Part shown: positions 1,346 through 36,379 of the stretch, piece by piece | Layout: every line of letters starts with the position of its first letter | How positions within the stretch are numbered: position 1 is the first letter of the stretch | Assembly (NCBI RefSeq): GCF_004010195.1 | Contig: NC_057711.1 | Coordinates: 36,861,406-36,925,405, forward strand | Direction: 5' to 3' | Length of the DNA stretch: 64,000 nt | Source of the DNA: Chiloscyllium plagiosum | Lineage: Eukaryota | The notes under the pieces: model-generated | Databases searched by the model: none | Told to the model about the DNA's origin: nothing | What the model saw: the letters and a program-made list of their open reading frames with translations, nothing else | Position numbers and translations under genes: made by a program

Positions 1346-1861
1346 CTTCAGGTTTAAAGGATATAATTCACTGATTTGGTCACATTGGACTTGACCCCTG
1401 TTGCATAACTGCAGACTCGGAAGCAGTCAAAAATTGGAGATTCTAACTTCAACAGGCATTGTAGAGGTTTGGTTGTAAGATGGAAAATGTAGGGCAAAAG
1501 GCGCAACCTTGATGTAACTGATGATTTTTTTTTTTACAAGTTATTAATCTCTTTTTTCTTTGCCTTAAAGCACTTTCTTTCTATTTCTGAAGCTGCTTAA
1601 TCACATTAGGCTAACGCTTTACTGCTTCCTGGGTGCTGACAGCTCCCCAAAACATTGCTTAAGTGTCTGATTGCCAGGGAATTGAGTCAATGAGTATTAT
1701 AGGTTATTGGTCCTGTGGGAAATCTAATGATTCATCTATGCCATTATGCTATTACAGTATTATACAAAAGTAGTTATAAAAAATTAATAATTTTAAAACA
1801 TTTTTCTGTTTCATAACAAAGAATGAGAAATTACCTACTGAAGAAACTCCATTCCCAACAT

Positions 1862-6372: not shown

Positions 6373-7049
6373 ATGGTCATTCATTGATTTTAAATTGTCA
6401 ATCATGAGGAAGCGAGTGCTGAAGAAAAGTCATGTTGAACTCAAAACTTTAACTCAGTTTCTTTCTCCACAGATGCTGTCAGATCTGCTGAGTTTCTGCA
6501 GCATTCTCTGTCTTGTTTTGGAACTATGTGCCAATTGGAAAGGGACATCACTAATAGATTTCTTTTTAAATCAACCTGTTCAGACATATTATAACACATC
6601 TCCAGAGCAGGTAGGACTTGAACCTCGTTCTTCTGGCCCAGCATAGATACTATCAATGCACAAGAATCCCTCAAAAACCCAAAACATTAAGAAGATTTAA
6701 CAAATCAAATTAAAATAACATTCCTAGGGCAGTGGTGCAATTCAGTCTCCCTGGTGGCCTTCTTCACAGCTGCTACATATTTAAGTTAAGAAATTTCTTA
6801 TCTCCGTAATCCTGCATGCAAACTCTCAAAATCACAGTACACCAAAATCCAACTGCCACAACCTAAAAACAAATTAAAGTGGAAAATGCACCTGGACTTT
6901 GTAGAACAGATGATCCTGAATGCATGTTAATTAAAATGAATGGGGATAATATTAGTCAATATTTATATAACATACTTTGTATTGTATTAGTTATTTTCAC
7001 AATCATGAGGGGAATCCCCCAAAGCCTAAACTTGCATTAATTTAACACC

Positions 7050-9320: not shown

Positions 9321-10661
9321 CCTATATCTGGATCCTTTGATCAAACATCTTCTCTTACTAATGTCCAATGTCATCTTTCGTCAAGACCAGTACTCCATTT
9401 CATTAAAATAAAACCAATTGCAAATGGTGAAAATCTGAAACAAAAACAGAAATTGCTGGGGAAACTCAGCAGGTCTGGCAGCATCTGTGGAGAGAAAGCA
9501 AAGTCAGTGTTTTGGGTTCAGTGATCCTTCATCAGTTTCTGTTTTTGAATCTAATCTCATTTTTCATTTTAGTATCTATTACTCTATCCTTAGATATTTA
9601 ATTACCAATCTCTGTCACCCTGTAGCAATGCCTGTTAAAACATTCAAAAAATATTAATTTATCAAATTTCTGCATTCAAATCATGACTTTCTTTTGTGAA
9701 TGCTTCATACTTTCAGAGAGTGCCTTTAATACAGCCTTATTCTCCATTTTGATATTATTTGATACTTGCCATTGTTTTGCATGATTTCTATTTTTGCACA
9801 CTACACTTATCTCTTATACTAGTTTTGTTTCTCTTGAATCTGAGCGTCCTTTTGGTTTCCCATCACTCTGTCTTGGTTCACTAGAGTAAAGGTGCTATGT
9901 AGAAGTTGTGTTGTCATGATTTAATTAAGATTCATCTGAAGAAAGATTCTTTTATGAATCATTACCAAATTGAATCATGAGGCATACATGAATTTTCAAT
10001 GTATGCATGATCTTTCAGTGTATATTTTACTTATGCCAATAAAAATAAGGTTAGTCACATTGTTAACTTCATTAGGTTTTTTCAACTGGAGTAACTTATA
10101 CCTTTGGAATTATATAGCTGAAAACCATATATTCTCAATTAAATAAATTTAGCAAATATCATCTCCAAGTTTTTAAAATTTAATTTCCCTATCAATTCTT
10201 CAAATTTCTTGGTCTCTAAAATAGTCATTGATAAGTGTTTGGTTTAATGAGGGATATGCATCAATTAGGCAAGATCTAAGGTGGTGATCATTCATGAGGA
10301 CATTACTGCACACATCTCCTATTCTAAAAAAATGGACAAAGAGGCTACTATAAAATATTTATATCTCATTAGTAAGGTATAAAAATCAAAGACATGATAG
10401 GTAATGCAAAAGTGAGTAGGCACAGCCGCATAAGTAAATTTAATCTCAACAGACAAATCAGTAGAGAATGGAGAGTGATGTCACTAGATGGCCTTTACTT
10501 TTAATGAAAATAATCACAGCTAGCAAATCCAAGATGGGCCATGAACTGCTCATGCACTAGGCATCACCTGGGCAATTAAGAATTGGAATAATCTGAATTT
10601 ACAGACATTTCTGATCACGCTATCAGTTGTTTGGAAAGGGTTAATAAGACTTACTTTTCAG

Positions 10662-13217: not shown

Positions 13218-13959
13218 TAGCTGTCATTTCTGTTGAATTTATTTGGATGACTTAGTAAATTGGTGAACGTTGTCTAGACACACTTACGCCAGGTGTATTC
13301 TCATATTTAGTTGGACTTACATTTAAAGCTAAATGAATTCTAGAATCCTAAATTCTCCTTAGAGGAAGATATGCTACTCTGAAGAACTTTCTTTATAGAG
13401 ATAATTATTTTCTTGTATTTCACAAATGGAACATCTTGTCACATATAAATCATTTTGGTTTAATCTCTATTTAATGAGCTCTGATCATTTAAACAGCTTG
13501 GTGTTAAATAAATCAACTACTTATTCCAAAGTTGATTTCTTTATCAATACATATTTTATTAAGAAATACAAATAGCAATAATCTGGGGCATTAAAGAAAT
13601 GTGAGAATAATTAAACGACTTTTACAAAGTAACATAACTCCGCAACTGAAAATTCTAACTCTACCCCTTCCTGCCACAAAGCCACACCAAACAGCTGTGA
13701 TTCAGAAATGAATTACTCTGTTGTTAGGATGACCATATCTGTGGGAAGTAGCACTGGTATCACCAAATTGAGCACGGGATTTAGAGCTTCCCTGTTGGCT
13801 GGAGGCACTGGATCACATCTGTTAGGTTGAGAGTTACAAAGGTAGGATGTTTTCAAGACATGGTCACCCCATAGCTTAAGGAAGTGCAGTCTGGGAACAA
13901 ATGGGTGACCACCAGTCAAAAAGAAGGGAGGCAAGCAAGCTTAACTGCAGGAGGCACAG

Positions 13960-14690: not shown

Positions 14691-15597
14691 GCCACTCCAC
14701 CTTATAAAGGTTACCAGAGAAATGCTGTGCTTGATCACGGACATTTTGCAAGGTGTCCCTTTGTTTTTCAGAAGGAATGCAGAAGATATAGCAGAACAGC
14801 ACCAGTTAGTAAAGAAGAAAGAGATGTAAAGTGGAGGTGAATTTTGTCCTCTCTGCAGGTACAGAATGTCCAACATCGTCAGGACCTCCTCCAGCAAGAC
14901 CTTCACCTGTATTCACAACATATTTGCCTTCTCCTTTGGTCCCCATTACCCTGCATTAGCCAGACCACTCCAGATATTTAATGGAAGTGGCTGCATGCAG
15001 TTCTACAAAGATTGCTTGTGTCCTAGCAGATGTCTGCTTTAGCGTCTCTACGCAAGTTCAAAGTATGCTAACAGCTAACTGGATCAAAACTGCAATTTAA
15101 TACCACTTTCAAATACGTGCAGCTGTCACCATTCTAGATTTTTCAGTGATGTTAAGATGCACATCTGGAGCAGGTAGGACTTGAACCTGGGCCTCCTGAC
15201 CTGTTACCATTCTAGAATTATGTTATCATAACATTTATTTAGTCCCTAATCTCAACTTTGCAGAAACATAATCTGAGACCGTATCTATGTGCTCCGTTTT
15301 ACCAGTTCTGCAACTGCCTATCTATTACTGCAAGTGAAATAAGGAAGATGTAAAAATATATGGAACCATTTATTTGAAATTATTTGTACTTGTAACAAAT
15401 ATCTTAAAAACAGAACAGAACAGACAACATACTCTGGTTTCTGTGTTCATACTCAAGAATTAACACAAAGTAAACTTTAACATTAACTTGCACGCTTTTT
15501 CTTAATTAATCCAGATGTAAATATTCTTAAAATATTTTCCATTAATAAAAACAATTTATGCAAAAATGAATTTTAAGCGTTGAGAAAAGCATCTTAC

Positions 15598-15701
15598 TAT
15601 TTCATTAATTCCACCCAGTTTTCCCGCCGAAAGCTTTGGTCTAGAAGTGGGACGAGGTGGTGGCACAATCATACTTGTATTAAGTGGGGTGGTAGGTCTT
15701 G
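15598..15701 (-). CDS. FCHO2: FCHO2 exon, 104 nt (116 nt with upstream acceptor), [35 protein letters not shown]
   Basis: cccccag / GTAAGA; close to recalled human [35 protein letters not shown], which favours FCHO2 over FCHO1/SGIP1. Confidence 0.93.
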
Positions 15702-16911
15702 CTGGGGGTGAGACTAAAAAGGGAGATTGAAAGAAGTAAAACACAATATTGAGAGAAATACCAGTTAACAGAATGATGAAACATCATATTTTCCAATTGT
15801 GAATGCAGCACTCATTTAAAAACATACTTGAGTTGAAATCAAGTTTGATTTTTAAATTTTTTTTAAATTAAAAAGTTCTTGTAATGAAAACTCTCATACC
15901 ACATGTTACTGAAATTCAAAGCTAGTCTACATAACTCATAGTTAGTTGCTATTGACTAGAGGCTGTATAATTCAAAAGGCTAACAGAGTGAAGTTTCAAA
16001 ATATCATAGTAACTTGTATCTTATTCTGCAACACACAACATATTTAAAAACAATTCCTCCAATCACCTACAGTAATATTATTTTGTTTCTGTCTGTCAGG
16101 ACTGCTTTGATTAGTCAGTTCAAGTGGCAGGTCTACTGATGGTTTATCAAGTGCCTGTCGCTCGCATACTCAGAGTCATATGGAAGACTGCAGCACATGG
16201 TACACCTGTGCCTGCTAATAATTCATAATTGTAGGTTTGAATTTGGTTGAGAACATGAAAAGCAGATATAAGGGAGGCCCAACAAAAATACAGATTGTAA
16301 GAGATTGTTTCCATGAGGAATGGGGAGTTGATTCAACAAAGGTATCAGTCTATATCCTCTAAAGTCTCTCTCAACAAGTGTATATCGAATGGGCATGCTA
16401 TTATACAAGGAAGGAGCAGTTAGAACTTTTCCGAAAAACTTGAATCCTAAACAAGGATTTTGTCATGAATATTAGCAATTGAGAAGCCACTTTCTTTGAT
16501 GCTAGATACTGAGATTATAATAGGTGAATTTTAAGGAAGTATTTATTTTTGAATAATATGGAGCCCACAGATGAACCTAACTTTTCAACTCAGGAATAAC
16601 CAGCCTCCAATTATACTTGCATATTCTATCACTATAAAAAAAGTCACAAGGCCAGATCTTGTAAAAATGTATATTTATATTCCTAGAATTATTTTTACGC
16701 ATGAATAGCTTTACTTGGCTGTTTCCAGAGTGAGAGGTTTTGATTCTGTTCAAGTCTTAGATGAAAAATAACCAGAAACACTGTATTTAAAGTAGTACTA
16801 ATTCAATAAAGATATTTATTTGACCACAAATGTTTTGTGGATATTTGCTTATATTTCAAAGAACCTAGCAAGAACACTTTGATTTAATTTAGTATCATAC
16901 AACTATGATAG

Positions 16912-17000
16912 CCCTGAAGAAGGGCTAATGCCTGAAACGTCGATTCTGCTGTTCCCTCGATGCTGCCTGACCTGCTGCGCTTCTCCAGCAACACATTTCC
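16912..17000 (+). mobile_element. Penelope terminal-repeat remnant with hammerhead motif
   Basis: CTGAAGA-A-GGGCTAATGCCT-GAAAC-GTC followed by the repeat gatgctgcctgacctgctg. Confidence 0.75.
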
Positions 17001-18320
17001 ATATCATACAACTACATTTACTAATGTATATCTGCAACAATAGTTGCAAATTATTTTCATGCTGCTTATATAGAAAACAATTCCAAACCATATATGGGAA
17101 AGAACTTCCAGTAGACTCTCCATCATTACTCAATGTTAAAAGGATCTTAATTTAGCTTGCTTTGTTGGTATTTCTTAATCAAAGAATCAAAATCTAGCAT
17201 CACATAATGGAAGTCAATGTCAGTTTTAAACAAAGTAAAGGTTTGTTCATTTGTCCAGAAAAAATGGAAACAAACTCAAGCAAGACTGTGTGTTAACTTA
17301 ATAAATAGATTTTTTATAAACATTAAAATGGATACTGCCTCTGGCTTAGGGCCCATGCACTCCAAAGTAGTTAAAAGACTAGGTGAGCCCAAATCCAGAG
17401 TTCTAAACCTTAGCCTAACCACTGTGGAAAGATGAAAAGAAGCGAATACTGTACTGTTCCTGCGCAATGTGTAGCAAAATTACTAGTTTCAAAGCAGTAA
17501 GGGCCGAGGAATAAAAAAGTCAAAAACTGACGTTTAAAAAAATTAAATAATATTCACCAGAAAATTAAATGATCAAACTCTATAATATTAGCAATTGCTT
17601 CTCCTAATTGCACTGTATTGATGAACCAGCCATTAAATAGTATAAAGAGTGTAATATTGACAACCCTCCTTTCGACAAGTAGGTGCTTGGTATTAACTTG
17701 GTAATCAGAACTCTAATATTTCTGAAGAAGAGAAATGCTGTTGAAGCTTTTTGTCTTGCACTCATCAAGGCAGAGTCACATGTAAGTAACTTTCAAAGAC
17801 AGAGAAAATTTATACTCTACAAGATGAGGATACGGATTAGGAGGTAGTGGATTCTGATTGGTACAGAAGTTGTTACAGAATCATTGAGACATACAGCCTG
17901 GAAATGGACCTGACAGTCCAACTCGTATATGCCAACCAGACATCCTAATCTGATCTAGTCCCATTTACCTACATTTGGCCCATAATACTCAAAACCCTTC
18001 TTTATCACATACCCATCCAGATGTCATTTACATGTTGTAATTGTAACCACCTCCACCCGCTTCCTTTGGCAGCTCAGTCTATAAAAGCACCACCCTCTGT
18101 AAGGAAAAGTTGCCCCCTCAGATCCTTTTTAAATCTTTGTCTTCTCAACTTAACATATGACCTCTAGTTTTGGACTTCCCCATGCTAGGAATAAGACCTT
18201 GGCTATTCACCCGCAGCATGCCTCTCATGATTTTATAACCTCTATAAGGTCACTCCTCAAAGATATCATGGACAATGGACTAAGAGATGCCCCTGACGGT
18301 CACAGGGTATACCATCAAAG

Positions 18321-18544
18321 GAGCTGAAAATGTGTTGCTGGAAAAGCGCAGCAGGTCAGGCAGCATCCAAGGAACAGGAGAATCGATGTTTCGGGCATAA
18401 GCCCTTCTTCAGGAAAAAGAAGGGCTTATGCCTGAAACATCGATTCTCCTGTTCCTTGGATGCTGCCTGACCTGCTGCGCTTTTCCAGCAACACATTTTC
18501 AGCTCGGATCTCCAGCATCTGCAGTCCTCACTTTCTCCTAGAAG
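18321..18544. repeat. Penelope-derived fold-back element with 89-bp inverted arms
   Basis: Arms 18321-18409 and 18417-18505, one mismatch, 7-nt loop; flanking direct repeat ATACCATCA at 18309 and 18545. Confidence 0.9.
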
Positions 18545-19284
18545 ATACCATCATAGGAGGCATACACTATTCCTAATTGATTGGCAAATCAAAGGGATTT
18601 GACAATAAGACATTATCAAGAAGAAGGCAATACTGAAGACAACAGCTCTGTAATTTCCCAGAAATTCAAAAAACACCCAAGTTTTGAACATACTCCTTTT
18701 GTTTGCAGAGAACGGGTCCACCATATGTTGCTTCTAGCAAGCAAAAAATGAGCCTGACGGAATATTTAAAATTGTTTTTTAGTGTACGTTCAGCAAATGC
18801 TGCCTAACCACGGAATCACATCTAACAGTTTTTAAATCTGTCACTTTGAGTTTTGCAAGTAATGACTTGCTGAGAGCAGTCTGTACTCTCCAATTACTGG
18901 TATAACTGCAGGAACATGCTGCTTGAATTGATTAGCTAGTCGCTGGGGCATATGGTCTATGTACCGCCATTATATTGTCAACGAACCTCACTAGCCTTCA
19001 ATGCACTACAGAACAGTTAAACGTAAAGCTTTTACATAAATTTAAACCCGTTTCGTCAAAGCCATGTTTGAAACTTGGTCTGAAGTGCACAAAATTCTTT
19101 CATTTTTCAATTTGATTCATTAGTCTCACTATATTGTCTTCAAAGATGACAACAGTATAAATAATACTTCTTGAAAGACACTTGCACTGTAAACTCACTT
19201 AAGCAGAAGTAGCTGAGCAAAGCAATTCTGAAACTTCTAAACACAGTAAAGTCTCTGATCACACAATCTCTGAAAGTGTTCTTT

Positions 19285-22200
19285 TTCCAATTCACTTGTA
19301 GTATGTGGGCATCACTAGCTGGACAACGTTTATTGTCCCTCCCTAGTTGTCCTCGATAATATGAGGACGAGCTACCTTCTTGAACCACTGCAGTCCATGT
19401 GCTGAAGATAGACCAACAATGCGCTTAACAGTGTAGGAATGGTAATATTTTTCCAATTCAGGATGGTGAGTGGTTTGGGAACTTGGTGTTCCCATGTATG
19501 TGCTGTCCTTGTCCTTCTGGATGGAAATGTTGTGGGTTTGGAAGGTGCTGTCTTTAGGATTGTTGATGAATCTCTGCCATGCGTCTTGTAGATAGTACAC
19601 ACTGCTACTACCAAATGTCAGTGGTAGAAGGAATGGATACTTGTAAACGTGGTGCCAATCAATCGGGCTGCTTTGTCCTGGATGGAACACAGTGGATTAG
19701 AATAAAATAGAAATTTATTGTCACGTGCCATTTTACATGAAAAATTCAGTGTAAAGTTTTAAAAGTTGCACCTATATTAATGACAGAAGTCTTACATAAT
19801 TTTTAAAAAGTAAAATTAAGACAAAGTTCATCACAGTTCAATTAACAGCTCCTGGGCTCAGAAAAAGCCTTTTAAGGAATGATGGAATACCCTGAAGTCA
19901 CAGCTGGGATGAGACCGCCATTCTGGGACAAGAATGTCATGCCAGGCTGCTGGAAACCACCACATCACTGGGACAGGAGGAGCCCCCTATTCCCCATCTG
20001 ATGCTCCTCCTGCTGCTGATCCGCCCCTTTGAAATGTTTCTGCTCCTTCAGACGTTCAGGCCTAGCTGCGGTCCTGGAGGCTTAGACCAGCCTGAGTCCA
20101 GGCCAGGCGAATCAGCCCAGGACCTACTCCTTGATCGTTTGGAGGCTTCCTCCTTTACCCAGCAGTCTCCATGCTTTAAAGAAAACGAGGAAAAAAGAAA
20201 ACAAAGAAGAAAAAGAATGGAGGTAAAGAGAAGAAACAAGAGAGAAAGAAAGCAAATGGGTGTGAATGAGCCCCAGGCTCAGCTCCCCTACTCTGCCGTC
20301 ATCTTGGGTCATGCTTGATGGTGTCTGGCTTCTTGATTGTTGATGGAGCTGCATACATCCACAGTGTATTCCATCACACTCTTAACCTGTGCCTTGTGGA
20401 CAGGTTTTGGAGAGTCAGGAGGTGAGTTACTTGCCACAGTATTCCTCGTTTCTAACTGCTCTTGTAGCCACTTGTGTTGATAATGGGAGATTTAGTGATG
20501 GTAGCACTTTTCCATGTCAAGGTGTGGTGTTTAGATTGTCTCTTACTGGAGGTGGTCATTGCCTGACATTTGTGTGGCATGAATGTCACTTGCCACTTGT
20601 TAGCCCAAGCCTGGATATTGTCCAAATCTTGTTGCATTTGAACATGGACTGCTTCAGTATCGGAGTCGTCATGAATGGTACTGAACACTGTACAACAATC
20701 AGCGAACATTTCTACTTCTGATGTTACAATGGAGGGAAGGCCATTGATGAATGAGCTGAATGTGATTGGGTCAAGGACACTAGTCTGAGGAACTCCTGCA
20801 GAGATGTACTGGAGCTGAGATGACTGACTTTCAACAACTTCAACCACCTTCCTAGTGTCAGATATGACTCCAACCAGTGGAGAATTTATCCCTTGATTTC
20901 CATTCATTCCAGATTTGCTTGGGCTTCTTGTTGTCCCATTTGGTTAAATGCAGCCTTGATGTCAAGGGCTGTCACTCTCACCTCACCTCTGGAATTCAGC
21001 ACTTTTGTCCATGTTTGAACCAAGGCTGCAATGAGGTCAGCAGCTAAGTGATCCTGGAAGAACCCAAAATAGGTGTCACTGAGAAGGTTACTGCTGAGCA
21101 GGTGTTGCTTGATAACATTGTTGATGATATCTTCCATTGCTTGGCTGATGAGGTGGTAATTGGCTGGGTTGGATTTTTCCTGCTTTTTGTGTATATACCT
21201 GGGCAATCTGCCAACTTATCAAGTAGATGCCTGTGCTGTAACTGTACTGGAACTGATCGGCTAGGGGAACGGCAAGTTCTGGAGCACAAGTCTTCAGCAC
21301 TACTGTTGGAATGTTGTCAGGGGCAATAGCCTTTGCAGTATCCAGTGCCTCTAACTGTTTCTTGATATCACATGGAGTGAATTGAATTGGCTGATGATTG
21401 GTACCTGTGAATGTGGGGACCACTGGAGGACACCGAGATGAATCATCCATTCAACATTTATGGTTGAAGACTGCTGTGAAAGCTTCAGCTTTATCTTTTG
21501 TACTGATGTGTTGGGATCTTCCATCATTGAGGAGGAGGATATTTGTTGAGGCTACTCCTCCAGTAAGTCATTTAAATGTCCACCACCATTCACAACTGGA
21601 TATGGCAAGACTGCAGATCTTAGATCTGATCCATTGATTGTGGGACTGCTTAGCTTTGTCTTCACTTGTTGCTTATGCTGTTTAGCATGCAAGTAGTCCT
21701 GTTTGATGGCTTCACCAGGTTGACACCTCATTTTTCAATATGCCCTGTCTTGCTCCTGGCATGTCCTCCTGCATTCTCCACTCAACCAGAGTAGATCCCC
21801 TAGCTTGATGGTAATGGTTGAATGGGGATAGGCCAGGACATGACATTGCTGATTGTGCGGGAATATAATTCTGCTGCTGTTGACAGCACACAGGACCTCA
21901 TGGATGGTCTAGTCTGGAAGTTGTTAGATCTGTTCAAAATCTGTCCCATGTAGTGCAGTGATAGCATCGCACAACACGATGAAGAGTATTCTCAATGTCG
22001 GAAATGGGACTTCATCTCCACAAGATACAGTGGTCACTCTTACCAAAACTGTCATGGTCAGATGCATCTGCCAGCAGATTAGTACGGATGAGGTCAAGTA
22101 TGGTTTTCCCTCTTCTTGGTTCTCTCACCACTGCTGCAGACCCAGTTTAGCAGCTATGTTCTTTAGGGCCCAACCAGCTTCATCACTAGTGTTGCTGTCG

Positions 22201-22670
22201 ACAAATTCTTTGTGGTGGACATAGAAATCCCCCACCCAGAGTATATCTGTGCTCTTGCCACCCCAGTGTTTCCTCCAAGTATTGTTCAACATGGAGAAGT
22301 ACTGATTCATCAGCGGTGGGATGATGAATCAGTACTTGGTAACAGCAGGTGGTTTCCTTGCTCATGTTTAACCTGAAGCTAGACACTTGATGGCGCCTGA
22401 AGTCCCAATCTGTATACTAGTGTCCCACCCACCTACGCTGGCTGTGTCCTGTTGGTGGGACAGGACATATCCAGGAATGGGATGGTGCTAAGTCATATTT
22501 ACAGAATCATACCTTCCAAATAATGTTAGGCTGTTGATTGACTAGTCTGTGAAATACTCTCCCAATTTTGGTGCTAGCCCTCAGACATCAGGAAGGATAG
22601 TCAAGTCAACAGGGCTGATCTTGCAGTTGTCTTTTTCCATGCCTAGGTCGACGCCAGGTAATCCTTCTGG
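19285..22670 (-). mobile_element. Degenerate LINE (CR1/L2 group) with endonuclease and RT remnants
   Basis: ILWVGDFYVHH, LDTAKAIAPDNIPTVVLKTCAPELA, ALDIKAAF, AGVPQTSVL, FADC; many frameshifts. Confidence 0.85.
19690..20312 (-). mobile_element. Non-coding insert (probable non-autonomous retroposon) inside the LINE
   Basis: Interrupts the host at gatgg; minus strand begins CAAGATGACG and ends AATAAA plus TTCTA-type tail. Confidence 0.55.
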
Positions 22671-24084
22671 TTTCGTGAAGAGCTTGTTCTCGCACAGGCT
22701 TCAATTCTGATATGCTTTGTCCCACATCAAACATAAAGGGATATTTACTGAGTGTGAACACATGTCTATCAATTACACTTTTTCAATTAAATAAAAGCTA
22801 AAGACAACCATGACAATGCTTTCATCAATCAGAGTGGGCTTGTTTGGTTAAACAAAAGCCTAGCAGTTTATTGTTCATGGTGTGTTCTTCATGGCAATGC
22901 CCCTGGCAATCAGCTCCTTCTTCTCATGAACTACAAGTTATTGTTTCCTTTGAAATTGAGTATTCTTGCAATGCTGTCTTGATGAGCACAAGACAAAAAG
23001 CTTCTACAGAATGTTTTCTTTCTGCAAAACTAAAATGAATGTATAGTTGAAGCTATACTTAGATCTGAATATATTGAAACTTCTCAAAGTGATTTGGTGC
23101 AGGGACTGCAGCAAGATGTGACAACTATTCCTAGCTTCTAATCAGCACTTAATTAGATGGTATTTTCTTCATTTGAAACATGCAGAACAAATGCCTACTC
23201 TAAGTATCTCTCTGCTGTAGCATTTATGCCTTTGTAAAATTCACAAAGGAAACACAGCTACTAATCAAGCCTTTTATGTCAGGCACAAAATACTTAGACA
23301 ATCTTAATTCTCCATAACTTGAAATTTTAAATCTTGAAAAAGTATGTTCTGCATTACTAGCTTCAAAGACCTACTTTCAACAGTCAGCCTGGCCTGAATT
23401 AAATTCTTAAAGGTTATGTCAGTTGGATATCAGAATATTTCTTCAAAAAGATTAATCAATCAGACCAATGTGCATTTTGCTGACGATCCTTACATTGAAT
23501 TTTGAATAATCTGGATCCCATCTCCTTCTCAGAAAATTAACATTTAAATCGCAAAAGTGACATGCTAGTTTAACATATCGCCTGTACTTCTTACGTTTAA
23601 ACCTCTTCCACTTAATTTAATTGTACTCAAACATAATATGATTGTTCAAATTCCAAGTTTAAACTTTTCGTCTTTTTAATGCACCTATTACTAACATAAA
23701 TTCGATGTCAGTACAAGACACATATATGCCCATAATCTGACTTATATCTGATATCAAATAACATTAACAAGGATTGAAGATGGTAGACATTTTGAAAATC
23801 ACATCAACTTTGTTATCACTAATAAAACAATGCCTTTAGTAGCTCAATTTCAAAAGTTAGGAAATTTACAGATTTAACTAACGTAGGTTAGCAAAGTCAG
23901 TGTAATCACATGTTTACGCGGCTAGTCCACATTTGTACAATTTGGCCATCTAGAGAAATGTCTTGCTACTTAAAGAGAAATTGATTTGACCTATTACGCT
24001 TAAAAGTACAGGACATGCTGTTAATGAAAGATATGTGCACAGTCAGAATATTAAGCAGTATTGTACAAATCGTTCTTGCCATAC

Positions 24085-24564
24085 CATCATTTAAGTGAGT
24101 AACCATAGCTGTTAAACTAACATCCACTGGCTGAGCTGCAGGAAAACAGAATCCTTCAGATCCAGTTTTATTCTCTTCCACGCATATTTTCTTGTCGCCT
24201 GTAAAATCACCCTGAAGGTCACTTTGGTCATCAAAAATGCTGCTGGAAGACGACAACTGAAAAGAGGCCACAGGAGGATTGGAGTTTGGTGAAGTTCTAG
24301 TTTGTGCTGTTTGTTTCAACTCTGAGTTTAAAGGTTTTCTTGGATTTAGTTCATCAGTAAATGAAATCCACTTGGTTCGTGAAGTAGGAATATCAGAAGG
24401 ACCATTTAAGGTTTCTAAACTTGCTGCTACACTAAAACCTGAGCCAGGACTAGTACTCTTAGACTCACAGCTTGGCTGATGCTTCACTGAGGCCTCATAT
24501 TCTACACCCCATGGTGAAATAGGACTTGAGAAAGTTGAGCTCCCTTCATGCCATGTTAATTCAG
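24085..24564 (-). CDS. FCHO2: Probable large FCHO2 cassette exon, 480 nt (160 codons), Ser/Pro-rich, (A)ELTWHEG...KWISFTDE...HLND
   Basis: ttttccttttccttcag acceptor, ATG|GTATGG donor, exact multiple of 3, stop-free in the phase-1 frame (within ORF 23966..24679), no recognisable TE sequence. Confidence 0.75.
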
Positions 24565-26149
24565 CTGAAGGAAAAGGAAAAATTGAAAGCTTGGGAAATA
24601 AATGCATTAAAAAGGTGTGCAATATTAACTTAACTCTATACATGTTTTTCATAAAGTGCTTCCACAATCTTTGTGACAAAGCAATCTAAAGCTAGGTTAC
24701 AGGGAGTATCAAGCAAAGTGCAGGACTAAATAATTTATGGGAGTCTTGAGCAGTACCTTTAAAAACTTACACAACTACTTAAATTGAATAAAATCAAAGT
24801 TAGTCATAGCACATTATTAAGTTGGCCACATGCTTAGAGATCAACTTATTAATGTCAATTGCCCAAATTAAATAAATATTATGGTATGAATCTATTATTT
24901 CACACCTTTGCCAGTTAAGTAGCAGAATAATCTCACAGAAAAAATACATTCCTGTAAAGATTGAAAATACTAATCATAGCAAATCATGAAATAAATGGTG
25001 TAACCTACAGCATTAATAGAATGAAAGTCATCACATTAAATAAATATGAAAACCAGGGCTGTCCTCAGCAAGTCTCTATAAAACTAATATTCCAATATTA
25101 CACCAATACATCAATTTGAACTTGGTTTGTTCAAATCAATTAAAGTGTCAGATTAGTTAATTAGTGTCAAATGAAGAACCTGACTATTGCTGAAGATGAA
25201 GTACTACCATACGGTTTTTGGCTTTCCAACTATTCACATGAATGTTTGATCAAGTATGTTCTAACTGGTATGAAAATAGACATTTTAGTGAATATGGAAA
25301 TTAAATAAAAAGAGCATTCAAAAGTATTGTCTGATTGATTACTCTTCCAAACTGCTTCAGTAATAATTTCCTAATTGCATCAATGAGTTTTTAGTTTTAC
25401 TTTCTTTCCAAAATGTTGCACAGTGGATTTAATTTAAATGAGGAGTGCCTCACTTCAATGATGACAGTTCATCAAATTTCAGAATCAACCCCTCCTAAAA
25501 CTGTAAATGGGTATGTGAAGAAATTCAAAGTTGTTTTATCCCTGAGGTTAAAGGTTTGTTTCTAAATTAAGACCAACAGAGTTTAAACTATAGCTCCTTT
25601 GTCTATACTAATGGATATAATCATTTGAAATAATTTGTATCATAAACAAAGATTTAGCTTTAAAATATACAATACACATATATATATTCAAACTATCTGT
25701 GCAGTAAGAATAAACTTATGGTTACATCAAAAATACTACTGTCCACAGTTCACTATGCAGTGATTTGACCAGTTTATCAGATTGCAAATGGAGAATGAGC
25801 ACAACAGGAATTAGCTAGGAGCTGTAGAAGACCAAGATGTGAATTAATGAAAGCATGAAGGCAAAGATTTAACAATGAAATTTTTTTAAAAATGAAATTA
25901 CTACATAAACCAGACATATATCATCTTGCTGTGTGTCTTCAGATGTATAAATAAAAGAGGCATTTCTACAACTCTCTAGTTGACTTGCTGAACAAGTTTC
26001 AAAATAGCACAAATCTATTCACATGGGTGATTTCAATGCAAATGCTACAGCAGGCAGTGATTCATGGTCAACCTGTCTAGGCCATGACAGGGTTGGCAAG
26101 ATAATCAGCATCCAATGCTTTCTTCAGCTTTGAAACGTGAATGAATACT

Positions 26150-28250
26150 AACACTTTATTTCAGGAGCTGCATCATTACAAGGATTCATAGTATCATCTA
26201 AGGTCAAGACATTAGCCCCAACCAGATCTAGTCATCTTGAGAAGGTACGATTTACTTAGTATTCTCTACACCTGCACCTACCACAGCATAGTCTGTGACA
26301 CCAACCACTCTTTTATCAGCAGTAGAGAGTGTACCCTGAACATTTCAGGGTTCTAAACATTGTGGCATCCCTTGCACAAGTAATGATATTAAATACTAAC
26401 ACTTCACACTTCCAGTAGAATGATTACTATCCAATGAAGACTTATCAGGAAGCACCAATGCCAGAATCAATGAACTTCATGACTTTTGAGGTTTAATCAT
26501 CTGCGAAGCAGCAGAAGCATCATTTGATAAGTGTGGAATCGACAACAAGAATTGGTTTGAGACCTATTTTAGCTGAGATCATAGTATGTGTTAATGCAAA
26601 AGATAAAGACTACATAATGCACAGCATATACCCAGAAGCAAAAACACTGTATGACCTGAAAGCAGTCAAGACAGCTGTGCAAAAGGTAGGGAAACACTGC
26701 AAAATTAAATACTAGGTCAACTTACACTAAGAAATCCAATCTGCCTGTAAGAATGGAAATCTATGAACTGTATTTGCAGAGTTCAAGAGAGTATTTTGTT
26801 CCATTATAATCAAAGTTATGCATGTGAAGTTGGCAGATGATGAATTACTCCATCAGAAATAAACAGAAGTGCCATTGGGCTGAACAGCACGATGAAGTGT
26901 AGTTCTTTTAGACAGAAACCTCCAAATTTGCACTTGACACTCTCATGCAATTTCCTGCCATGGTTGAGTTACATGCAGCATCCTCATCACTTGAGTATGA
27001 GAACACCAAAGAGTGCTTAACAAACAGAAAGGCAGCAGGAATGGAATATCATTCAGCTGGTCAAGCTGGTCCTATCTACAACTATATGTTTGTGACTGTC
27101 TCCTTCTCTGCTGGAGATGCACAATGCCAAAATCATCACACTTTACAAAAGTAAATATTACAGAATACAACTACAGGGCATCTCACTCCTTAGTATCACA
27201 CCGAAATCCTTCGTTTGGGTTGTAAAAAGCACCATCTACTTGCAGACTGACTATCTGGAAGCACAGTGTGGTTTCCATACTGGCAGATCTATTGTGGTCA
27301 TGATCTTCTCCAAATGACACGATAGAAAAAGTGCAAAGAACAGTGTATACCTCTTTACTTCAGTACATCTCATCAAGGCATTCAACACCATTTGCTGAGC
27401 AGGGTTTTACAACATTTTGAGAAGACTGGCTGTTCATTAAAGCTCTTCAGTCTCATGCGTTCCTTGCTTTCCCTAACAATAAGCAACAAGAAAACATTGC
27501 TCATGGGACCAAGTGTTGTATCTCCAGTCCAATCACAATATAAAACACGCTGCTGAAAGTGGTTGAAAATTCTGTTAGCTTGAGACTGTGGTTATATACA
27601 ATCTTGATACAGTCAAACATGCAAGTATAGAGAAATTAGTGACCATCTTCGGATGACTCACAAAACATACTCTGAACAACATCAAGTTGACCCTGTGAAC
27701 CCTGCTAATGGTTTATAAGGCCAGTGTTCTTAGCAAAGAGTGTGGTGCTGGAAAAATACAGTAGGTCAGGCAGCATCCCAGGAGTAGGAGAATCGACGTT
27801 TCGGACATAAGCCCTTCATCAGGAAGCCTAACCTGCTGTGCTTTTCCAGCATCACACTCTTGACTCTGATCTTCAGCATCTGCAGTCTTCACTTACTCCC
27901 AGTCTTCTTAGCACTTTGCTGTATGGTTGTGAAACTTATAATGACTTACAGCTATCAAGAAAAGAATTCCAATAATATTTTTCTACACTGTATATTGCAC
28001 ATTACATGTATATTCTGGCAGATTGAAGTCTCAATTTCCACAGTCTTCTCAAAAGCAGAGTTCTCTAGCTTATTAGCACTCATCAAACTGGCTTCACTGG
28101 CAAGTGGACATACATAAGATGAAAGACCAAAAGGTTTTCTGTATGGCGAGGTAGTCAGGATCCAGACGATCATAGGACTTGAAAAGAGTGATGATTGTTC
28201 TCAATGGCCACTAGCTGACAACAAAGAAAAATATGAACCCTTCTCAGCTG
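26150..28250 (+). mobile_element. Highly degenerate RTE-clade LINE
   Basis: GISLLSITPKSF..EAQCGFHTGRSIVVMIFS resembles RTE RT motifs; boundaries approximate. Confidence 0.7.
27735..27900. repeat. Penelope fold-back element with minus-strand hammerhead motif
   Basis: Partial inverted arms; minus strand CTGATGA-A-GGGCTTATGTCC-GAAAC-GTC. Confidence 0.8.
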
Positions 28251-29765
28251 AGAGACATCAACATGGAGAAGTCAACAACACTTGGTAGCCTTGTGTAAAA
28301 CTTGTGGTGGGACCTGCCTCTCAAGGGGTGGCCTCTTCAGCCATGAGCAAAAGTACATCATGTGGAGACACTCCCTGAAACAGTTTCTTCCATCATTTTT
28401 CATAGATGAAAGAATGATGGGGGCACATAATTAGCGACGGCATAGCAAATAGTAGTATGAAGGTTATACTAGAACTCTCTAAAACATTAGTTAGGGACCA
28501 CAGCTAAAATACTACTGACATTCTGGTTATTGTGTTATAGGTCAAATAATATTCCACTAGAGTACAAAAGAGATTTTTGCGGATACAGCTAGGACTGGGA
28601 AACTTTAAGTCTTAAGCAATGATCAGATAAGCTGAAGTTAGTTTTGTGAAATGGAAGAGAAAGAGAGGTTTAACTGTGGTGTATAAAAATTGTGAGGCCT
28701 CATGAAAGTGGGCAGGAATTGCTATTTCTTTTAGCTAAAATGACAATAACCAAGGAGAATAGATTTAATCAAGGGGAACAGTTTAAACAATTTGGCAGAA
28801 GGATCAGAAAAGAATTTGGAGAAATCTTTCACAACAGGTGGGTGAGGGATGGTGTGACAAAGACACGTACGGCATTTGAAAAGTATAAGGGTAAGCACCT
28901 GATTTTTTTATACTCCAGGGCCACAGATCAATAAATGCAATGTATAATGAGCCTGCCAGTTTTATTTTATTGCTGGCACTGACACAAGGGGCTGAATAGG
29001 TCACTTCTACCTTGCAATGTTTCTAAATTTTAATATGGTGCAAAGTTCTGTGGCAATTAATTGATTTATAACTAGGGTCTACTGTAATTCTGTTTCGTTC
29101 AAAGCATCTGACAATCTAATAATAGCGAATGAATTATATTAACATGAATGTCATAAATCTGACACGTCATTAACTGGAAACAACTGTGTGTTCTTCAATT
29201 ATCCATCTAGCTGCAAGAATGCAGAGATGTGAAGTGTCAAATATTTTGTCAAGGATGTCTGACAAAATATCATGCCTATTTCAATTAACTATAATGCACA
29301 GCCCTGGAATTCATGAAATATCACATTTACAAACTGTGTATATGGGAATCTAGACAGACTTTATTTAAATGTCTAAAAAATAGAAATAGGCCAACTTTTT
29401 TAAACAAATAGTACAATTAGCACACAGTATGCACATTATGCATGCCAATCAGCAAGGTGGAATCACAGATATTTACATTATCTTTAAGAGCAGGTGCAGT
29501 AGCTTTTAAGTAATCTCAATTCATGGTTTATTTGGAAAACTTTATTTGGGATTACTCAGGTGCTTTTTATTGAAGACACCTTAATAAGCTATTCAAAAAT
29601 ATTTGAAGGTATAAAGCTAGCGAGGCTTATTGTAGTTTTGATGCCTTATTTAAATAGAAACACCTGGTTTCCAATTTCCTTTCATAAAACCACTTTGCTG
29701 GATAATGCAACAGAAAAACACATGTTCAACCATTCGATTTTCCAATACACTATTGTTTTATTTAC

Positions 29766-29804
29766 CTGAAGCAAGCAGTGTGTGTACCTCAGAAGTGTTA
29801 CTGA
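29766..29804 (-). CDS. FCHO2: Probable FCHO2 cassette exon, 39 nt, (V)SNTSEVHTLLAS
   Basis: strong tract tttccttttcttccag, CAG|GTAAAT donor, symmetric phase 1-1, open frame; no recalled homologue. Confidence 0.6.
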
Positions 29805-30449
29805 CTGGAAGAAAAGGAAAAGCTAGAACAAAGGTTAAGAAAAACAAGAAGGAAGATGAAAGCAAAAGTAATTGATGAAATATACCACCAGCATGGTTAA
29901 TTTTAAAATCTAGTATGAAAGCAAGTTTTAAGCTTTTACCATCCAAGTCAAGTTGCATTGTTTACATTTAGAACTGCCTTGTTCTTAACACATAGGTGAA
30001 ACAAAATATTGACTGAGGTGTGCCACATTCAAACATTTGCCCTTCATATATAGAACCAAAACATTTACAGCATAAGAGGCAGAAGTTCACTCCACTATGT
30101 TCATTAGTTGGGGTAATCCAAAACCACCCTTGTTTTTTCCTGTTTTTCAAACATTTATTTAATTACTCATTAAGAGATGTAAAGTTTCAGTCTTAATCAT
30201 GCCCTGTAATGTGACTTTTTGTGTTTGTAAACTGAAATATAATGTTTTCTACATTCTCTTCATAAAAGATGTTTATTTGAAATGGATAAACTCCAGTCCT
30301 GCCTTCCCAAAGGTAAATGTTTCTTCTACTTACAGTTATCAAAATTCTTCCTAACTAAAAGTCAAAATTAAAATCTTTTTTGCAGCCTCTGATATCAACA
30401 ACTTAAGCTTCTACTTGTAACTATTGTTTATTCATCCATGGTAATCCTG

Positions 30450-31050
30450 GCGTGGACCAGAACCTCAACTGGACTCATTATATCAATATAGTGGCAACGA
30501 GAGCAGATCAGAGGCTAGGAATACTTGAAGAGTACTCATCTCCTGACTCCCAAAGCCTGGCCACCATCTTCTGGGCACAAATCAGGAGTGCAGCACCAGC
30601 AGCACTCAAGAAGCTTGAACCATACAGGACAAAGCAGCCCATTTAGTTAGCACCACATCCATTACCTCCAACACTGACACTCAGTAGCAGTAATGTGTAC
30701 TACCTGCGAGATGCACTATTGAAAGTTGCCAAAAATTCTTAGAGAGCACCTTCTAAATCCAAGTTCATTTCTATCCAGCAGGACAAGGCACGATCACCTG
30801 CAAGATCCCTTCCTAGTCACTCACAATCCAGACTTGGAAGTATATCACCGTTCCTTCACTGTCGAGGGTGGATATCTTGGAATTCCTCCCCCCACCAAGG
30901 GGATTGTGGGCTTACCTATAGCACCTGAGCTGCAACTATTCAGCAAAGTAGCTTACCAGTCCGTTCCTGAACGCCACTGGCGACAAGCAATAAATGCTGT
31001 GCATCCAGCCACACCCATGTTCCCATGAGAGAATATACAAAAAAAATTGG
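30450..31050 (+). mobile_element. 3' fragment of the LINE family seen at 19285-22670
   Basis: DQNLNWTHYINIVATRADQRLGIL and similar 3' UTR. Confidence 0.7.
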
Positions 31051-31059
31051 CATATTCTT

Positions 31060-32460
31060 TCCTACTCACTAAGCCTGTGCGAATCCCCCCAAGCCACTTT
31101 ACATCTTCCTTACAATACACAACACACACATTCCACCTAATTTTGTAGCATGTGCAAATTCAGAAATATTAAGTTTAGCCCCTGCCTCCAAATCATTGAT
31201 ACATATTGTGAACATCTAGAGGTCAAGTATCAATCGTGCAGTATCCCACTAGTCACTTGGGATTGAACTGGTTATTTCTACTCTCTTGCTTTTTGGCCAT
31301 TAGCCAATTTTAATCATGTCACTACATTACCTCCTACTCCAGGTGCTTTAATTTTATTAGCTAACCTCCTGTGTGGGACATTATCAAATGCCAAATATAT
31401 TATGCCCATTGACACTTCTCGATCAATTTCATTAGTAACATCCTTGAAAGACTCCAATACATTTGTCAAGCACAATTTCCCAATTGCAAATCCATTTTGA
31501 CAATGCTCAAGCAAATCCTTTACCACAGCTTTCGTAATAGATTCTAGTATTTTCCATTCTATTGAGCAAGGCCAACAGGCTATGAACGTGCTTAGAGTAT
31601 TAACAAGCTGGAAGCAGAGTGGGCATAAACCTCACTGCACTTGTAGGCAGTGGATAATGGAGTAATACAAAGAGATATTGACAATTTTCATCACTGGCTT
31701 GGATGAAAAGACAGAAAGTAATGAATCTCAAGTTTGCTGATGATACAATGCTATGTGGAAAGATAAACTATAGGAAGGACACAGAGTCTACAAAGAGGTG
31801 TAGACAGGTTAAGAGAGTAGGTAACAATAATATAGGGATGTGCAAAGTTATTCACTTTGGTCATAAGAATAAAAAACAGAATTGTTTTAAAAGATTCTAA
31901 ACTTGTAACCATTTACTTTCAAAGAGACATGGGTGTTTAAGGAATGTAGCAAGTCATCATGGAGGTACAACAGCAACTAGGAAGGTAAGTGAATAAAGTC
32001 TAAATTATACAGGATTTTAGTGAGACCACATCTGGAGTATTGTGCACAGTTTTGGTCTCTGAAGATTGAGTCAGTCAGGTCTATTTCTCTGTTGCTTACA
32101 AGAATGAGATGCACTCCTATTAAGAAATACAACATTTTTGAGGGGGCTGTTAAGATAGATGATGAGAAATTGTTTTCACTGGTCAACAAATCTAAAATGT
32201 GGAGACACAGCCTCAGGCTAAAGGGCCAAAATTTTAGGACTAAGATGAGGAGAAATTATTTCACTTAAATAGTGAATCTATTGGGATTATAAATCTGTGG
32301 AAGTCTCTACCCAAGGTGCCTGGGGATGGTTCATTTCTGGAAATATACAAGGCTGGAATAGACACAGCTTTTGTCTCAGAGAATTAACAGACATGTGGAA
32401 CAGGAAGGAAGGTGGAGTTGAAGCTCAATATCAACTGTGAATGTATTAAATCGTGGAGCA
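31060..32460. mobile_element. Degenerate CR1 fragments in opposite orientations
   Basis: Minus: CLTNVLESF..AFDNVPHRRL; plus: KFADDT, RPHLEYCAQFWS. Confidence 0.75.
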
Positions 32461-33865
32461 GTAATATAAAAAAAAACCTTATGCTCACGCGGTAATGAGA
32501 ATAATTTAAATTTAAACATATGTTAACAATCTCTCAGGCATTCTACCCAACACATTGTAAAGACACACAAATATGTTCAGTTAAAGATGCAAATTAATAA
32601 CCAAAAAATATTTTGGTCTCCAAAATGGGTGACAGCACTGGAAAAAAATAACAGAAAAATCATAGTCAAAATACTTAGTAACATTCATGCCCCTCGAACA
32701 CAAAACAATGACAATTTCCAATTCGAGACATTCAAACTACTTTCCCTTGACATTCAATGGTATTACCATGATTGAATCTGCTACTAGCAACATCCTGAAG
32801 GGTTACCAAAAACTAAACTGGACTCGCCATACAAATACAGTAGCTGCAAGAAAGGTTAGGGATTGGAAAACTTCAATGATAACTCCCTTCCTAACTCATT
32901 GCAGTAGAGCATTTAATGAGTGGTTTCACTAAATGAGAATTCTACGTTGATCCGCAAATGCACCATTCCACCAATGATCAGATACAAATCTTGAATTATT
33001 CCTCTGTCTCCAATCCTTCTTTGCTAACAGCATAAAAACCATCATTTTCCAGACCTCTTCAGATCCAAAGAAGTCATATTGGACTCAAAACATTAATTCT
33101 GTTTTTCCCTCCACAGATGCTGCCAGATTTCTGAGCTTCTCCAGCTCTTCTGATTTTATTTTGGATCCAGCTTCTGTAGCAGTTTACTTTTATTGATATG
33201 ATTCTACAATGGTTACTTTTCCCATTGTTTTAACAATGGCTTAATTGTTAATGGTTTAACTCAGTTTTAACAAATGAGCTCAAGTTTGAAAAGGCTGGTT
33301 CTTAATAGCACTAACATTCATCTTTTAGATAACTAATATTTTGGATGAGAAAATGCAATCTTTATAGAATGATTTTTTAACAATATATTTTGAGCATCTT
33401 AAATAGAGAAGACTTTAAAATTGAGTATTTAAATGAAGTGACTGCTTGCTGTACAAAATCAAATTTGCTACTGGCATTTAGTAAATGTGAGAAGAATTAA
33501 CAATGACATTGTCTCTTCCACATTTCATTAAAAAAAATAGCAAATTCTCTCACCATTACAGTCAAAATCAAACAAAAAGTAATAATAATGAAGAAAAAAA
33601 CTTTTAGGAAAACATAACTTAGTATCGAAACAATATTATCCCTTTTTCTTAATGGCATCCTACCCATGCAAAGAAACGAAACATTAGCATGGTTAATGCA
33701 TTCATAGTATCAATTTGTTAATATTACATACTGATAGCAATAATAGTGAGGAAATTATAATGTATACACAAAAATCATACCTAACTTGAAAGTGGCATAA
33801 ACAGTACTATTGTATTTAAAATATTTACACTATTAAGCAATATCAGAAACTAAATTAATATTCAC

Positions 33866-33960
33866 CTGATGAAGTTGTTGATGTGGATGAAGACGAGGAA
33901 TCAAGTGGAGGTCCAAACAACGGATCCAGTGAAAACAGGTCATTATTGACCCTTCTGGAG
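33866..33960 (-). CDS. FCHO2: FCHO2 exon, 95 nt, (D)SRRVNNDLFSLDPLFGPPLDSSSSSTSTTSS
   Basis: tttag / GTGAAT, phase 2-1; conserved DPLFGP block; a second in-frame CAG lies 6 nt inside. Confidence 0.92.
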
Positions 33961-36379
33961 CTAAATGAGTTAAACAAAAGCAAAAGCTTTAAGTTAATGC
34001 ACAATTGCAATAATTAGCAATTACTTTCTCCAGTTAATTAATCTTGATATTTCTGTTTTAATGCCTATATAAAAACTTCGGTTCCTAACTTAATCATGCA
34101 CACTTGTATAATTGATAGCATTTCTTGAAAATGTTTGCAGAATGCAGCATGGATCTATAATTTTGCTCCCCTGTTGGCAGGTTCATAGAGTGTGTATGTA
34201 AAATCTAGTAGGTGGATCTTTGAAAACCTCCAACTACCTAACCATGATCTGTCTGACATTTTATGGGATGGGCATGTTAGGTAATCTACTCCTCCTTGGG
34301 TTTACTGAAAAACCCTTAAGGCTTCAAGCTGTTGCTATTTCTGATATTTTACCTGTGGCTGAGGGAGATTCATGTCTTGCAGGAAGCTTAACAGTTTTAG
34401 CCATGCATACTGCTATCTATCTGCAATGAAGCTGAACCACTTTTAAACATAAATGTAAATGCATTATCAAACATCTCCTGCTATTCAGCTTTAATCTGCC
34501 TACAAGGTCTGCCTGATAAAAATTAGTCTTTGAGAGTTCTCCTCTACCCCAAGCACTATTATTACTAGGTACAATTAACTTATGTTGTGTCAATTGTCTG
34601 AATCCTTTTGGCCTTTGGCCATGGGACAGCCACTCATGACGTTGTGATTGTTCTCCTCTTACCTGCGTTGACCTGAGTGTTAGTTTACCATTCTTTCTAA
34701 GAAAAAATACTTATTTTAGAAAACACATTAACAATAGGGTGCAATTGACACCAGATAAATTGCCGAAGCCAGTTCAATGGCTATTGCGACCTGTTTTTCC
34801 AGTAGCTCTTCCCTTTGTTTTCATATGCCTAGAACTTTGGATAGTTAAGAATTTCTGTAATAGCAATAAGATGAAATCTTAGGCTAGATCATAACTACTA
34901 GAAAAATTCAGTATAAGGGGTCCCCAGTGTCTTCTAACCTCTTAGATTCTCTGTAACATTCAAGGCTCACATTAGGCGTATGATTAGATATTGACTACTT
35001 GCTGCATCCAACCAGACTTAACGTTTAATACCATCCCAGACAGAGTATTCCACTTTATTCATGGGCCTGGCTGAAGAAGAACTACAAGTAGTCATTAGCA
35101 AGTCAGTTCCTAAAGGCTGTTCTGTCATTTAACATGATCATAGTAGATCTCATCTCGGCCTCAACCCCATTTTCATACCTGCTTTCCAATGCACTTTAGC
35201 CCATTATTAATTAAACAGACTCCTAATTTGCTGGGTCTGCCGAGCAGACATTAACCTAGAATCCATGATTCTTCTTCCACATGTACTGCAAATCATCCCA
35301 GCAATTGCTACTACTCAATCCTAGTGCTGCTGGGATTGCAGAATTGCCAGTTAATCTGATTGGCCAGCAATTCTCTCGTACTCAGCATAATATTCTTAAA
35401 GGGTGGAAGCTCCACTGTGACCTAATTATGGCAGTCACCAGCATAGACGTTTTGGTTAAGGGGAGGGTGTCGTCTTGTAAAATTCACAATGCGATTCTCT
35501 CTCCACAGATGCTGTCAGAAGTGCTGAATATCTACAGCATTTTCAGTTTTTCTTCTTATTTCTCACCATGTCTTGTTTTTATATCTGTATTTTATTCAAT
35601 GCCACCTTTCTTTCCCAGGAATGCCCATCTCTGCTCTTTTCTCCCAGGGGCAGCTTATTTATCAGAAGACACCACGTAAAAAAATCCTTCAATACACTAA
35701 ATATTTTAATAAATTGTGACATAAAAACATTTCTTTCCTGTCCGGCATAATTTTAAGAAAAACAAAATACTGCAGATGCTGGAAATCTTAACTAAACACT
35801 CAGTAGGTCTGGCAGCACATATGGAGAGAGAAAAACACTGTTTCAAATTCACATTTTTAAGCTGGAAAGGATAATAAGGGTGACACCAATGTTTGGCTGA
35901 CGCAAGTGATAAATATCAGAATTACTGAAATTAATAATTAATTAAATTATAACATTCAAAATCACTAACACAGCTGAAGGAACAACTGTTTAGTAAAAAT
36001 AACTTAAATATTTGAAGTTACTATTGGTTTTATCATTGAGCCAAACAAAGTGAGGAATAAATTATATATTGTCAAATCTCAAGCATATAGCAGGTTGCAA
36101 ATCATGATCGTAACAGGACTTCATCACTGGTCACAATTATCAATCAGGGAACAGGACTGATACCTATTCCTAACATAAGACTGCTTTTTAGCCAACCCTC
36201 CTTATGTTCCTCTCCAAATGCACAAAAAGCTGATACACTTGTGGTGCACTGATAATGCCCCTACCTCTGTGTCAGAAGGCTTAAGTTCAACTCCCAGCTC
36301 CTCCAGAACATGTCTGAAAAGGTTGATTAAAAATTTCTATGAAAAGGTAACAAATATGTTTAATATCGTACTGACTTAC

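Follow-up and report, generated by a model that had tools for sequence, protein, structure and literature searches.

Results

An optional exon between the DPLFGP and ARPTTP exons of FCHO2

The window, the whole 64,000-nucleotide stretch of Chiloscyllium plagiosum DNA that was analysed, contains the muniscin gene FCHO2: the FCH and mu-homology (muHD) domains score above the Pfam cut-offs, and the exons of the protein model map to the window. The features that matter here are given below with the evidence for each in brackets; a slash marks an exon border, and papers are cited by PMC identifier.

33866..33960, minus strand: upstream exon with the C block DPLFGPPL, a ligand of the alpha-appendage platform (sequence; function from PMC9054013)
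29766..29822, minus strand: optional phase 1-1 mini-exon of 57 nt, with a second acceptor at 29804 that gives 39 nt (shark models, contigs)
24564-24085, minus strand: optional FCHO2 exon of 160 codons (open frame, splice sites, RefSeq models, contig)
15598..15713, minus strand: downstream exon ([10 protein letters not shown]...GINEI), acceptor at 15713 (joint 33866-15713 in 4/4 runs)

A stop-free, symmetric 480-nt segment with splice sites, lying downstream of the DPLFGP exon (donor 33866) and ahead of the ARPTTP exon, had been proposed in an earlier sequence-only reading of this DNA, and exon mapping and inspection of the borders bore out both the description and the location. The minus-strand segment 24564-24085 is 480 nt long and is in phase 1 at its 5′ and 3′ ends. 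By eye, which is how splice-site strength was assessed, its acceptor is pyrimidine-rich (tttccttttccttcag/CT) and its donor is a GT (GATG/gtatgg). The reading frame 24562-24086 runs through 159 codons with zero stops, and when the bases of the exon were shuffled the frame stayed open in 2 of 100,000 trials. The segment thus combines AG/GT borders, a length divisible by 3 and an open frame, as a cassette exon does, and a search of the genome found a single copy.

The neighboring splice sites differed in part from those first named. The downstream acceptor lies at 15713, not 15701, in both the RNA joint and the shark models. The upstream donor at 29766 belongs to the 57-nt mini-exon 29822-29766 with its second acceptor. 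Both lengths of this mini-exon (57 and 39 nt) occur in shark models, contigs from two sequencing runs (X2 and X5, below) cover it, and in the models the 57-nt form is often joined before the 480-nt exon. A search for a second mini-exon of the bony-fish type between 33866 and 24564 gave 6 candidates, none of which beat the known one.

No Pfam family was found in the exon peptide, and its single PDB match (E 0.63) is attributable to chance. AlphaFold returned a pLDDT of 33.9 for the exon region, with values below 50 at all 180 residues, from a shallow alignment of 8 sequences; the 160 inserted residues are likely a disordered part of the linker.

Skipping and inclusion in sequencing runs and gene models

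Four sequencing runs (X1, X2, X5 and X19, of 24 listed) were aligned to 15500-34100. The run labels carry no tissue information, X1, X2 and X5 were taken as RNA by guess only, and X2 comes from a related organism. A run search turned up no run recorded as RNA that contains the sequence, which speaks neither for nor against expression. The skip joint 33866-15713 was the best-supported joint and was found in 4/4 runs, with depths of 50.9, 58 (X2) and 117, and 1 raw read. Inclusion was seen most directly in X2, where a contig of 551 nt (depth 11) aligns exactly to 24085-24564 with zero differences, and 29 and 42 letters overhang the ends, as expected of a spliced-in exon. The 42-letter overhang is consistent with the upstream mini-exon, and another X2 contig, also at depth 11, covers 29778. 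In X5 a contig terminates 2 nt beyond the acceptor of the 480-nt exon. Coverage of the exon in X1 came from an unspliced contig at the depth of the intron, and X19, of which about 2 in 100 parts were examined, had no depth at the exon. Among the joints listed, the skip joint was the only one for X1, X5 and X19 and inclusion joints did not appear; 822 others lay outside those listed, so unlisted inclusion joints are not thereby absent. With a skip depth of 58 against 11 for the inclusion contig in X2, inclusion of the 480-nt exon looks like a minor form in these runs.

Both forms are also annotated: skipping and inclusion are seen in the runs (skip joint in 4/4, exact-border contig in 1/4) and in RefSeq models. 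RefSeq isoforms of C. plagiosum match the exon peptide at 100% identity, and XP_043563595.1 contains it exactly. The identity of the peptide to full-exon models of other sharks and rays is 73-98% (18/19 matches, the remaining one being a part-exon form), and the full exon is present in models of 13 elasmobranch genera, cluster members included. The skip form of shark FCHO2, 811 aa, is likewise annotated and agrees in length with the human FCHO2 form of 810 aa (PMC4215538). The long FCHO2 isoform is therefore already in RefSeq as automatic models, yet it is unstudied.

Splicing noise, or an intronic artefact of annotation, is an extremely improbable explanation of the segment. Its low share in the runs, the unspliced X1 contig at intron-level depth and the fact that gene models are predictions all lean that way, but they have to be set against an exact-border contig and against an open frame and motif preserved from sharks to marsupials (below), by which this explanation is already largely refuted. 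The two outcomes that had been named as fatal to the exon, a lack of junction evidence and stops or frameshifts in related sharks, did not occur: the contig has the exact borders, and the frame is open in all 13 elasmobranch genera.

Internal splice sites divide the exon

Two further sites split the exon into three parts:

24469..24564, minus strand: 5′ part, 96 nt, to an internal in-frame donor, GCT/gtgagt (donor used in skate model P0020)
24199..24468, minus strand: middle 270 nt with the motif, removable in frame via the internal donor or acceptor, judging from batoid models P0020 and P0025-P0031
24085..24198, minus strand: 3′ part, 114 nt, after an internal in-frame acceptor, ttttacag/GCG (acceptor used in ray and skate models P0025-P0031)

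The internal donor (after 24469) and the internal acceptor (24198) are both in phase 1 and both present in the C. plagiosum window; their use is seen in the batoid models, in which nested splicing removes the motif-bearing 270-nt middle.

The first 24 residues of the exon (window 24505-24562), with two tryptophans and the sequence SPWG, are nearly invariant across 13 shark and ray genera and partly preserved in gar, sturgeon and bichir. They are the portion kept by the internal donor, and a second motif here is possible.

A conserved WxxF-acidic motif

24373-24350, minus strand: KWISFTDE, matching the WXX[FW]X[DE] consensus (sequence position, alignment)

The placement of KWISFTDE at 24350-24373 proved exact, and WISFTDE fits the W-x-x-[FW]-x-[DE] consensus (PMC5694535). 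Since the pattern also arose in 2,355 of 100,000 residue shuffles of the exon, the motif in one sequence is weak evidence and conservation is needed. An alignment was made of one long form per genus from 36 genera (25 non-frog, 11 frog), omitting a paddlefish copy (P0072), a partial Atractosteus sequence (P0122), a 200-aa Sminthopsis ORF (P0186) and all short isoforms. W-I-S-F-[TNS]-D-E was found in 25/25 non-frog genera, with W, I, S, F, D and E invariant there. The motif is also present in the Atractosteus and Sminthopsis sequences, whereas the omitted paddlefish sequence, one of two copies, reads WISFTNE (D-to-N). Monotreme models end soon after the motif but retain it.

Conservation is concentrated on these residues. 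Over the 61 ungapped columns of the 25 non-frog genera, 6 of the 8 invariant exon columns fall inside the 7-residue motif, an outcome reached in 21 of 200,000 random placements (6 of 11 columns and 11 of 200,000 placements with monotremes excluded); relatedness among the genera, and an alignment anchored in part by the motif, mean that these permutation figures overstate independence and are descriptive. The motif itself is 6-7/7 identical in bony vertebrates, in which identity to shark outside it is 20-31% (14/70 to 46/148): coelacanth 46/148, gar 45/147, sturgeon 36/144, bichir 39/137, opossum 34/151 and platypus 14/70, with skate at 112/150. The two other tryptophans of the exon are preserved in just 13/25 and 17/25 non-frog genera.

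Frogs depart from this pattern, with no motif in 9/11 genera and a degenerate match in 2/11. That most frogs have a long open insert without the motif, that rays splice in motif-free parts, and that no fold is predicted (from the shallow 8-sequence alignment) would suit an exon whose main role is that of a disordered spacer or phosphorylation platform extending the reach of the mu-homology domain, in which the motif is secondary or an RNA splicing element. We regard this as distinctly unlikely, because conservation focused on W, I, S, F, D and E, with a free T/N/S position between them, is the pattern of a peptide motif.

Two other local patterns were observed. In bony vertebrates another tryptophan, five residues ahead of the motif (WSQSQW; P0066, P0065, P0062, P0085, P0141), is conserved as well; elasmobranchs lack it. 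In 11 frog sequences (P0105, P0109, P0117, P0124, P0125, P0128, P0131, P0132, P0134, P0209, P0210) a different block is conserved downstream, LQRFHSAFE...DNMRYFLSER, perhaps a new helical motif.

The exon is supported as ancestral in jawed vertebrates

Searching with the insert plus its flanks gave 123 matches, 120 of them listed; the search was word-indexed, so absence from the matches is no proof of loss. Among the matches listed, long isoforms occur in coelacanth, gar, sturgeon, paddlefish, bichir, frogs, monotremes and marsupials, and long models with an aligned exon include XP_014345575.1, XP_015194732.1 and XP_056680718.1. Both flanks were present in 234/249 proteins, comprising 96 long proteins with the motif pattern, 18 long ones without it (17 from frogs, and the WISFTNE paddlefish copy) and 120 short or intermediate forms. 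The 120 listed matches (of 123) included no teleost, bird or turtle. The full exon was also absent from the models examined of Narcine, Pristis, Mobula, Stegostoma, Hemiscyllium and the chimaera Callorhinchus, which may reflect annotation depth, and from those of Erpetoichthys, one caecilian, three squamate and three placental genera (Callithrix, Cavia, Sorex).

The flanks were required to find the bony-vertebrate orthologs. The bare peptide, run with HMMER against all 1.84 billion representatives, missed them and returned 4 matches, 1 of them real (a ray-type exon ORF); the other 3 were repeat-like chance matches. A profile built from 8 elasmobranch inserts gave 26 matches, all elasmobranch, and the ESM Atlas, with the opossum insert as query, gave no usable match. 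Judged by its occurrence in gar, coelacanth, marsupials and others, the exon is not shark-specific, and the suggestion that it is ancestral is supported to the level of jawed vertebrates. In Sminthopsis the exon (P0186) has erroneously been annotated as a 200-aa "uncharacterized protein" in its own right.

A similar exon in the paralog SGIP1

A muHD search of the C. plagiosum genome identified two paralogous loci besides FCHO2, on contigs C31 and C11. F-BAR exons mark the C31 locus, which is taken as FCHO1; the C11 locus, with no F-BAR exons in 150 kb, is taken as SGIP1. In FCHO1 the linker exon is free of WxxF-acidic motifs, and no profile reported it. The SGIP1 locus contains the following exon:

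C11 56258537-56258040: SGIP1 exon of 498 nt, phase 1-1, immediately upstream of the ARPATP exon (borders taken from the genomic sequence)

This exon encodes KWIDFSD, with W at codon 68 as compared with 65 in the FCHO2 exon, and 5/8 residues of the region are identical to the FCHO2 motif. The corresponding motif in the human SGIP1 insert is KWVHFSD. The idea that the FCHO2 exon is SGIP1-like thus holds for position, phase, length and motif; outside the motif it fails the profile test. With the FCHO2-exon profile, the SGIP1 exon ranked 444 of 2,780 scored ORFs (E 160; 5,108 ORFs searched); with the motif masked it ranked 1,628 of 2,594; and a 36-genus FCHO2 profile search did not report it.

Based on architecture, and with no sequence similarity beyond the motif, descent of the FCHO2 and SGIP1 exons from one ancestral exon is fairly probable. 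The lack of similarity could also mean that the two exons arose separately and converged on the motif. Phase 1-1 is common to most exons of the linker, and short motifs evolve convergently. We nevertheless consider a separate origin doubtful, given the shared slot before the ARP exon, the lengths of 480 and 498 nt, W at nearly the same codon, the 5/8 identity and the rarity of the pattern in shuffles of the SGIP1 exon (139 of 100,000). Loss of signal between paralogs is moreover expected when FCHO2 orthologs are at 20-31% identity outside the motif.

The SGIP1 segment is also optional, like the FCHO2 exon with which it shares slot, phase and near length, and is skipped in some transcripts. Rat SGIP1beta, cloned from neurons, is without 165 residues (N273-E438) of the proline-rich region (PMC11213518), and by length and position the missing segment would be this very exon. 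The shark SGIP1 copy resembles that of its paralog FCHO2 in motif and in the offset of the motif; it differs from the FCHO2 exon in being proline-rich and in having an extra IFGP, and similarity is confined to the motif. The IFGP is C-block-like and lies about 18 residues upstream of WIDFSD; a single SGIP1 exon may thus hold motifs of both the platform and the sandwich type.

Candidate binding partners of the motif

The motif belongs by sequence to a well-known class. WXX[FW]X[DE] motifs bind a sandwich site of the AP2 alpha-appendage at about 10 uM, separate from the platform, and permit avidity (PMC5694535). NECAP and AAK1 compete via WxxF (PMC6706699, PMC3794858), and stonins bear a WxxF-acidic motif (PMC3393740). 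The FCHO2 motif matches exactly the consensus of the WXX[FW]X[DE]n ligands (NECAP1, stonin 2, AAK1/NAK kinases and SJ170) and, as in those proteins, is placed in a stretch of an accessory factor for endocytosis that is probably disordered. It is internal, whereas that of NECAP is C-terminal; it has an uncharged T/N/S right after F; and it is a candidate ligand by sequence. In SJ170, the long splice form of synaptojanin 1, the motif is likewise supplied by a long splice form, as Jha is said to have reported in 2004. WISF[TNS]DE is thus likely, on the strength of this match, to bind the sandwich subdomain of the AP2 alpha-appendage.

A different partner, such as the AP-1 gamma-ear, a GGA GAE domain, the cargo pocket of mu2 (W-x-x-hydrophobic) or an ATG8-family protein, is an unlikely alternative. 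WXXF-based motifs are reportedly divided between AP-1 and AP-2, according to work by Ritter in 2004, and the binding preferences of GAE domains and ATG8 proteins also count in its favor. WxxL in the C block of mammalian FCHO2 binds mu2 at the Yxx-phi site (PMC9054013), and sharks are without the C-block W, so that WISF could supply one. The invariant acidic pair after F, however, is an exact fit to the alpha-appendage consensus, and FCHO2 works with AP2 at the plasma membrane (PMC9054013). Monotremes and marsupials, moreover, retain both WxxL and the WISF motif, which is therefore not simply a stand-in.

The C-block tryptophan itself is replaced by L in sharks, rays, the chimaera, ray-finned fishes and the coelacanth. 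Among FCHO2 proteins, 158 have LDPLF and 76 have W. With L in cartilaginous and ray-finned fishes and in the coelacanth, the mu2 WxxL site looks like a tetrapod gain.

A possible splice-controlled AP2 site

The C block (LFGPxL) has a weak affinity for the alpha-appendage platform (100-200 uM for FCHO2), from which DPF/FxDxF proteins displace it (PMC9054013). Inclusion of the exon would insert 160 residues directly after the C block and add the WISF[TNS]DE motif, which lies 104 residues past DPLFGP, or 85 without the mini-exon. The long form would then hold two ligands for two faces of the appendage, platform and sandwich, 85-104 residues apart. Binding at two sites could bring a gain in avidity, with the long form staying longer on AP2 during pit initiation and contending at the sandwich site with NECAP, AAK1 and stonin 2; the splice choice (skip, 5′ part, 3′ part or full exon) would switch that site on or off. 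We consider this scenario as a whole moderately probable: engagement of both faces, a longer dwell, competition at the sandwich site and control by splicing. Matches to the AP2 ear domain in the genome are single exons, each with half the domain.

A broader reading can be offered tentatively: that the exon is a switchable fifth AP2-binding block predating the duplication of FCHO2 and SGIP1, that FCHO2 and neuronal SGIP1 clamp both appendage faces and gate NECAP, AAK1 and stonin, and that placental FCHO2 ceded the site to SGIP1 while most frogs rewired the exon. Such a block would have been missed because work on FCHO2 used the short human form.

The known blocks of FCHO2, N1, N2, N3 and C, share the linker with the exon, which comes right after block C, and the predicted target is the same AP2 appendage (PMC9054013; PMC4215538). 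The exon differs from them in being optional and absent from the 810-aa human form, and its predicted site is the sandwich, not the platform or the core. RefSeq predicted long isoforms contain the exon, with no remark on motif, conservation or function. No description of an FCHO2 long isoform, or of a WxxF-acidic motif in any muniscin, was found in the open full-text literature searched (including PMC4215538, PMC8044098, PMC4824007, PMC3715437, PMC3315808 and PMC8740024). The annotated long isoform has one sharply conserved motif, by sequence of a known AP2-binding class.

In the current model of pit initiation the FCHO linker has four AP2-binding blocks, and FCHO is released through competition at weak sites. 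If the proposal is true, many vertebrates would tune the dwell of FCHO2 on AP2 by splicing, through an optional fifth site that is conserved and of a tighter motif class. It also points to a candidate motif in SGIP1, which has isoform-dependent effects on endocytosis and on CB1 receptor surface levels (PMC11213518, PMC8740024). The significance is tempered by an exon already annotated and a motif class well known.

Other features of the window

The window has N gaps at 2134-2341 and 52698-53390. Introns at 381-3850, 10640-13250, 19350-21450 and 50010-54200 contain SINE-like repeats and many decayed retroelement fragments, which we take to be of LINE type, with family names judged from RT-like translations. 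At 6892-6915 (minus strand), a segment encoding DHLFYKVQ matches another small optional FCHO2 exon in a protein model.
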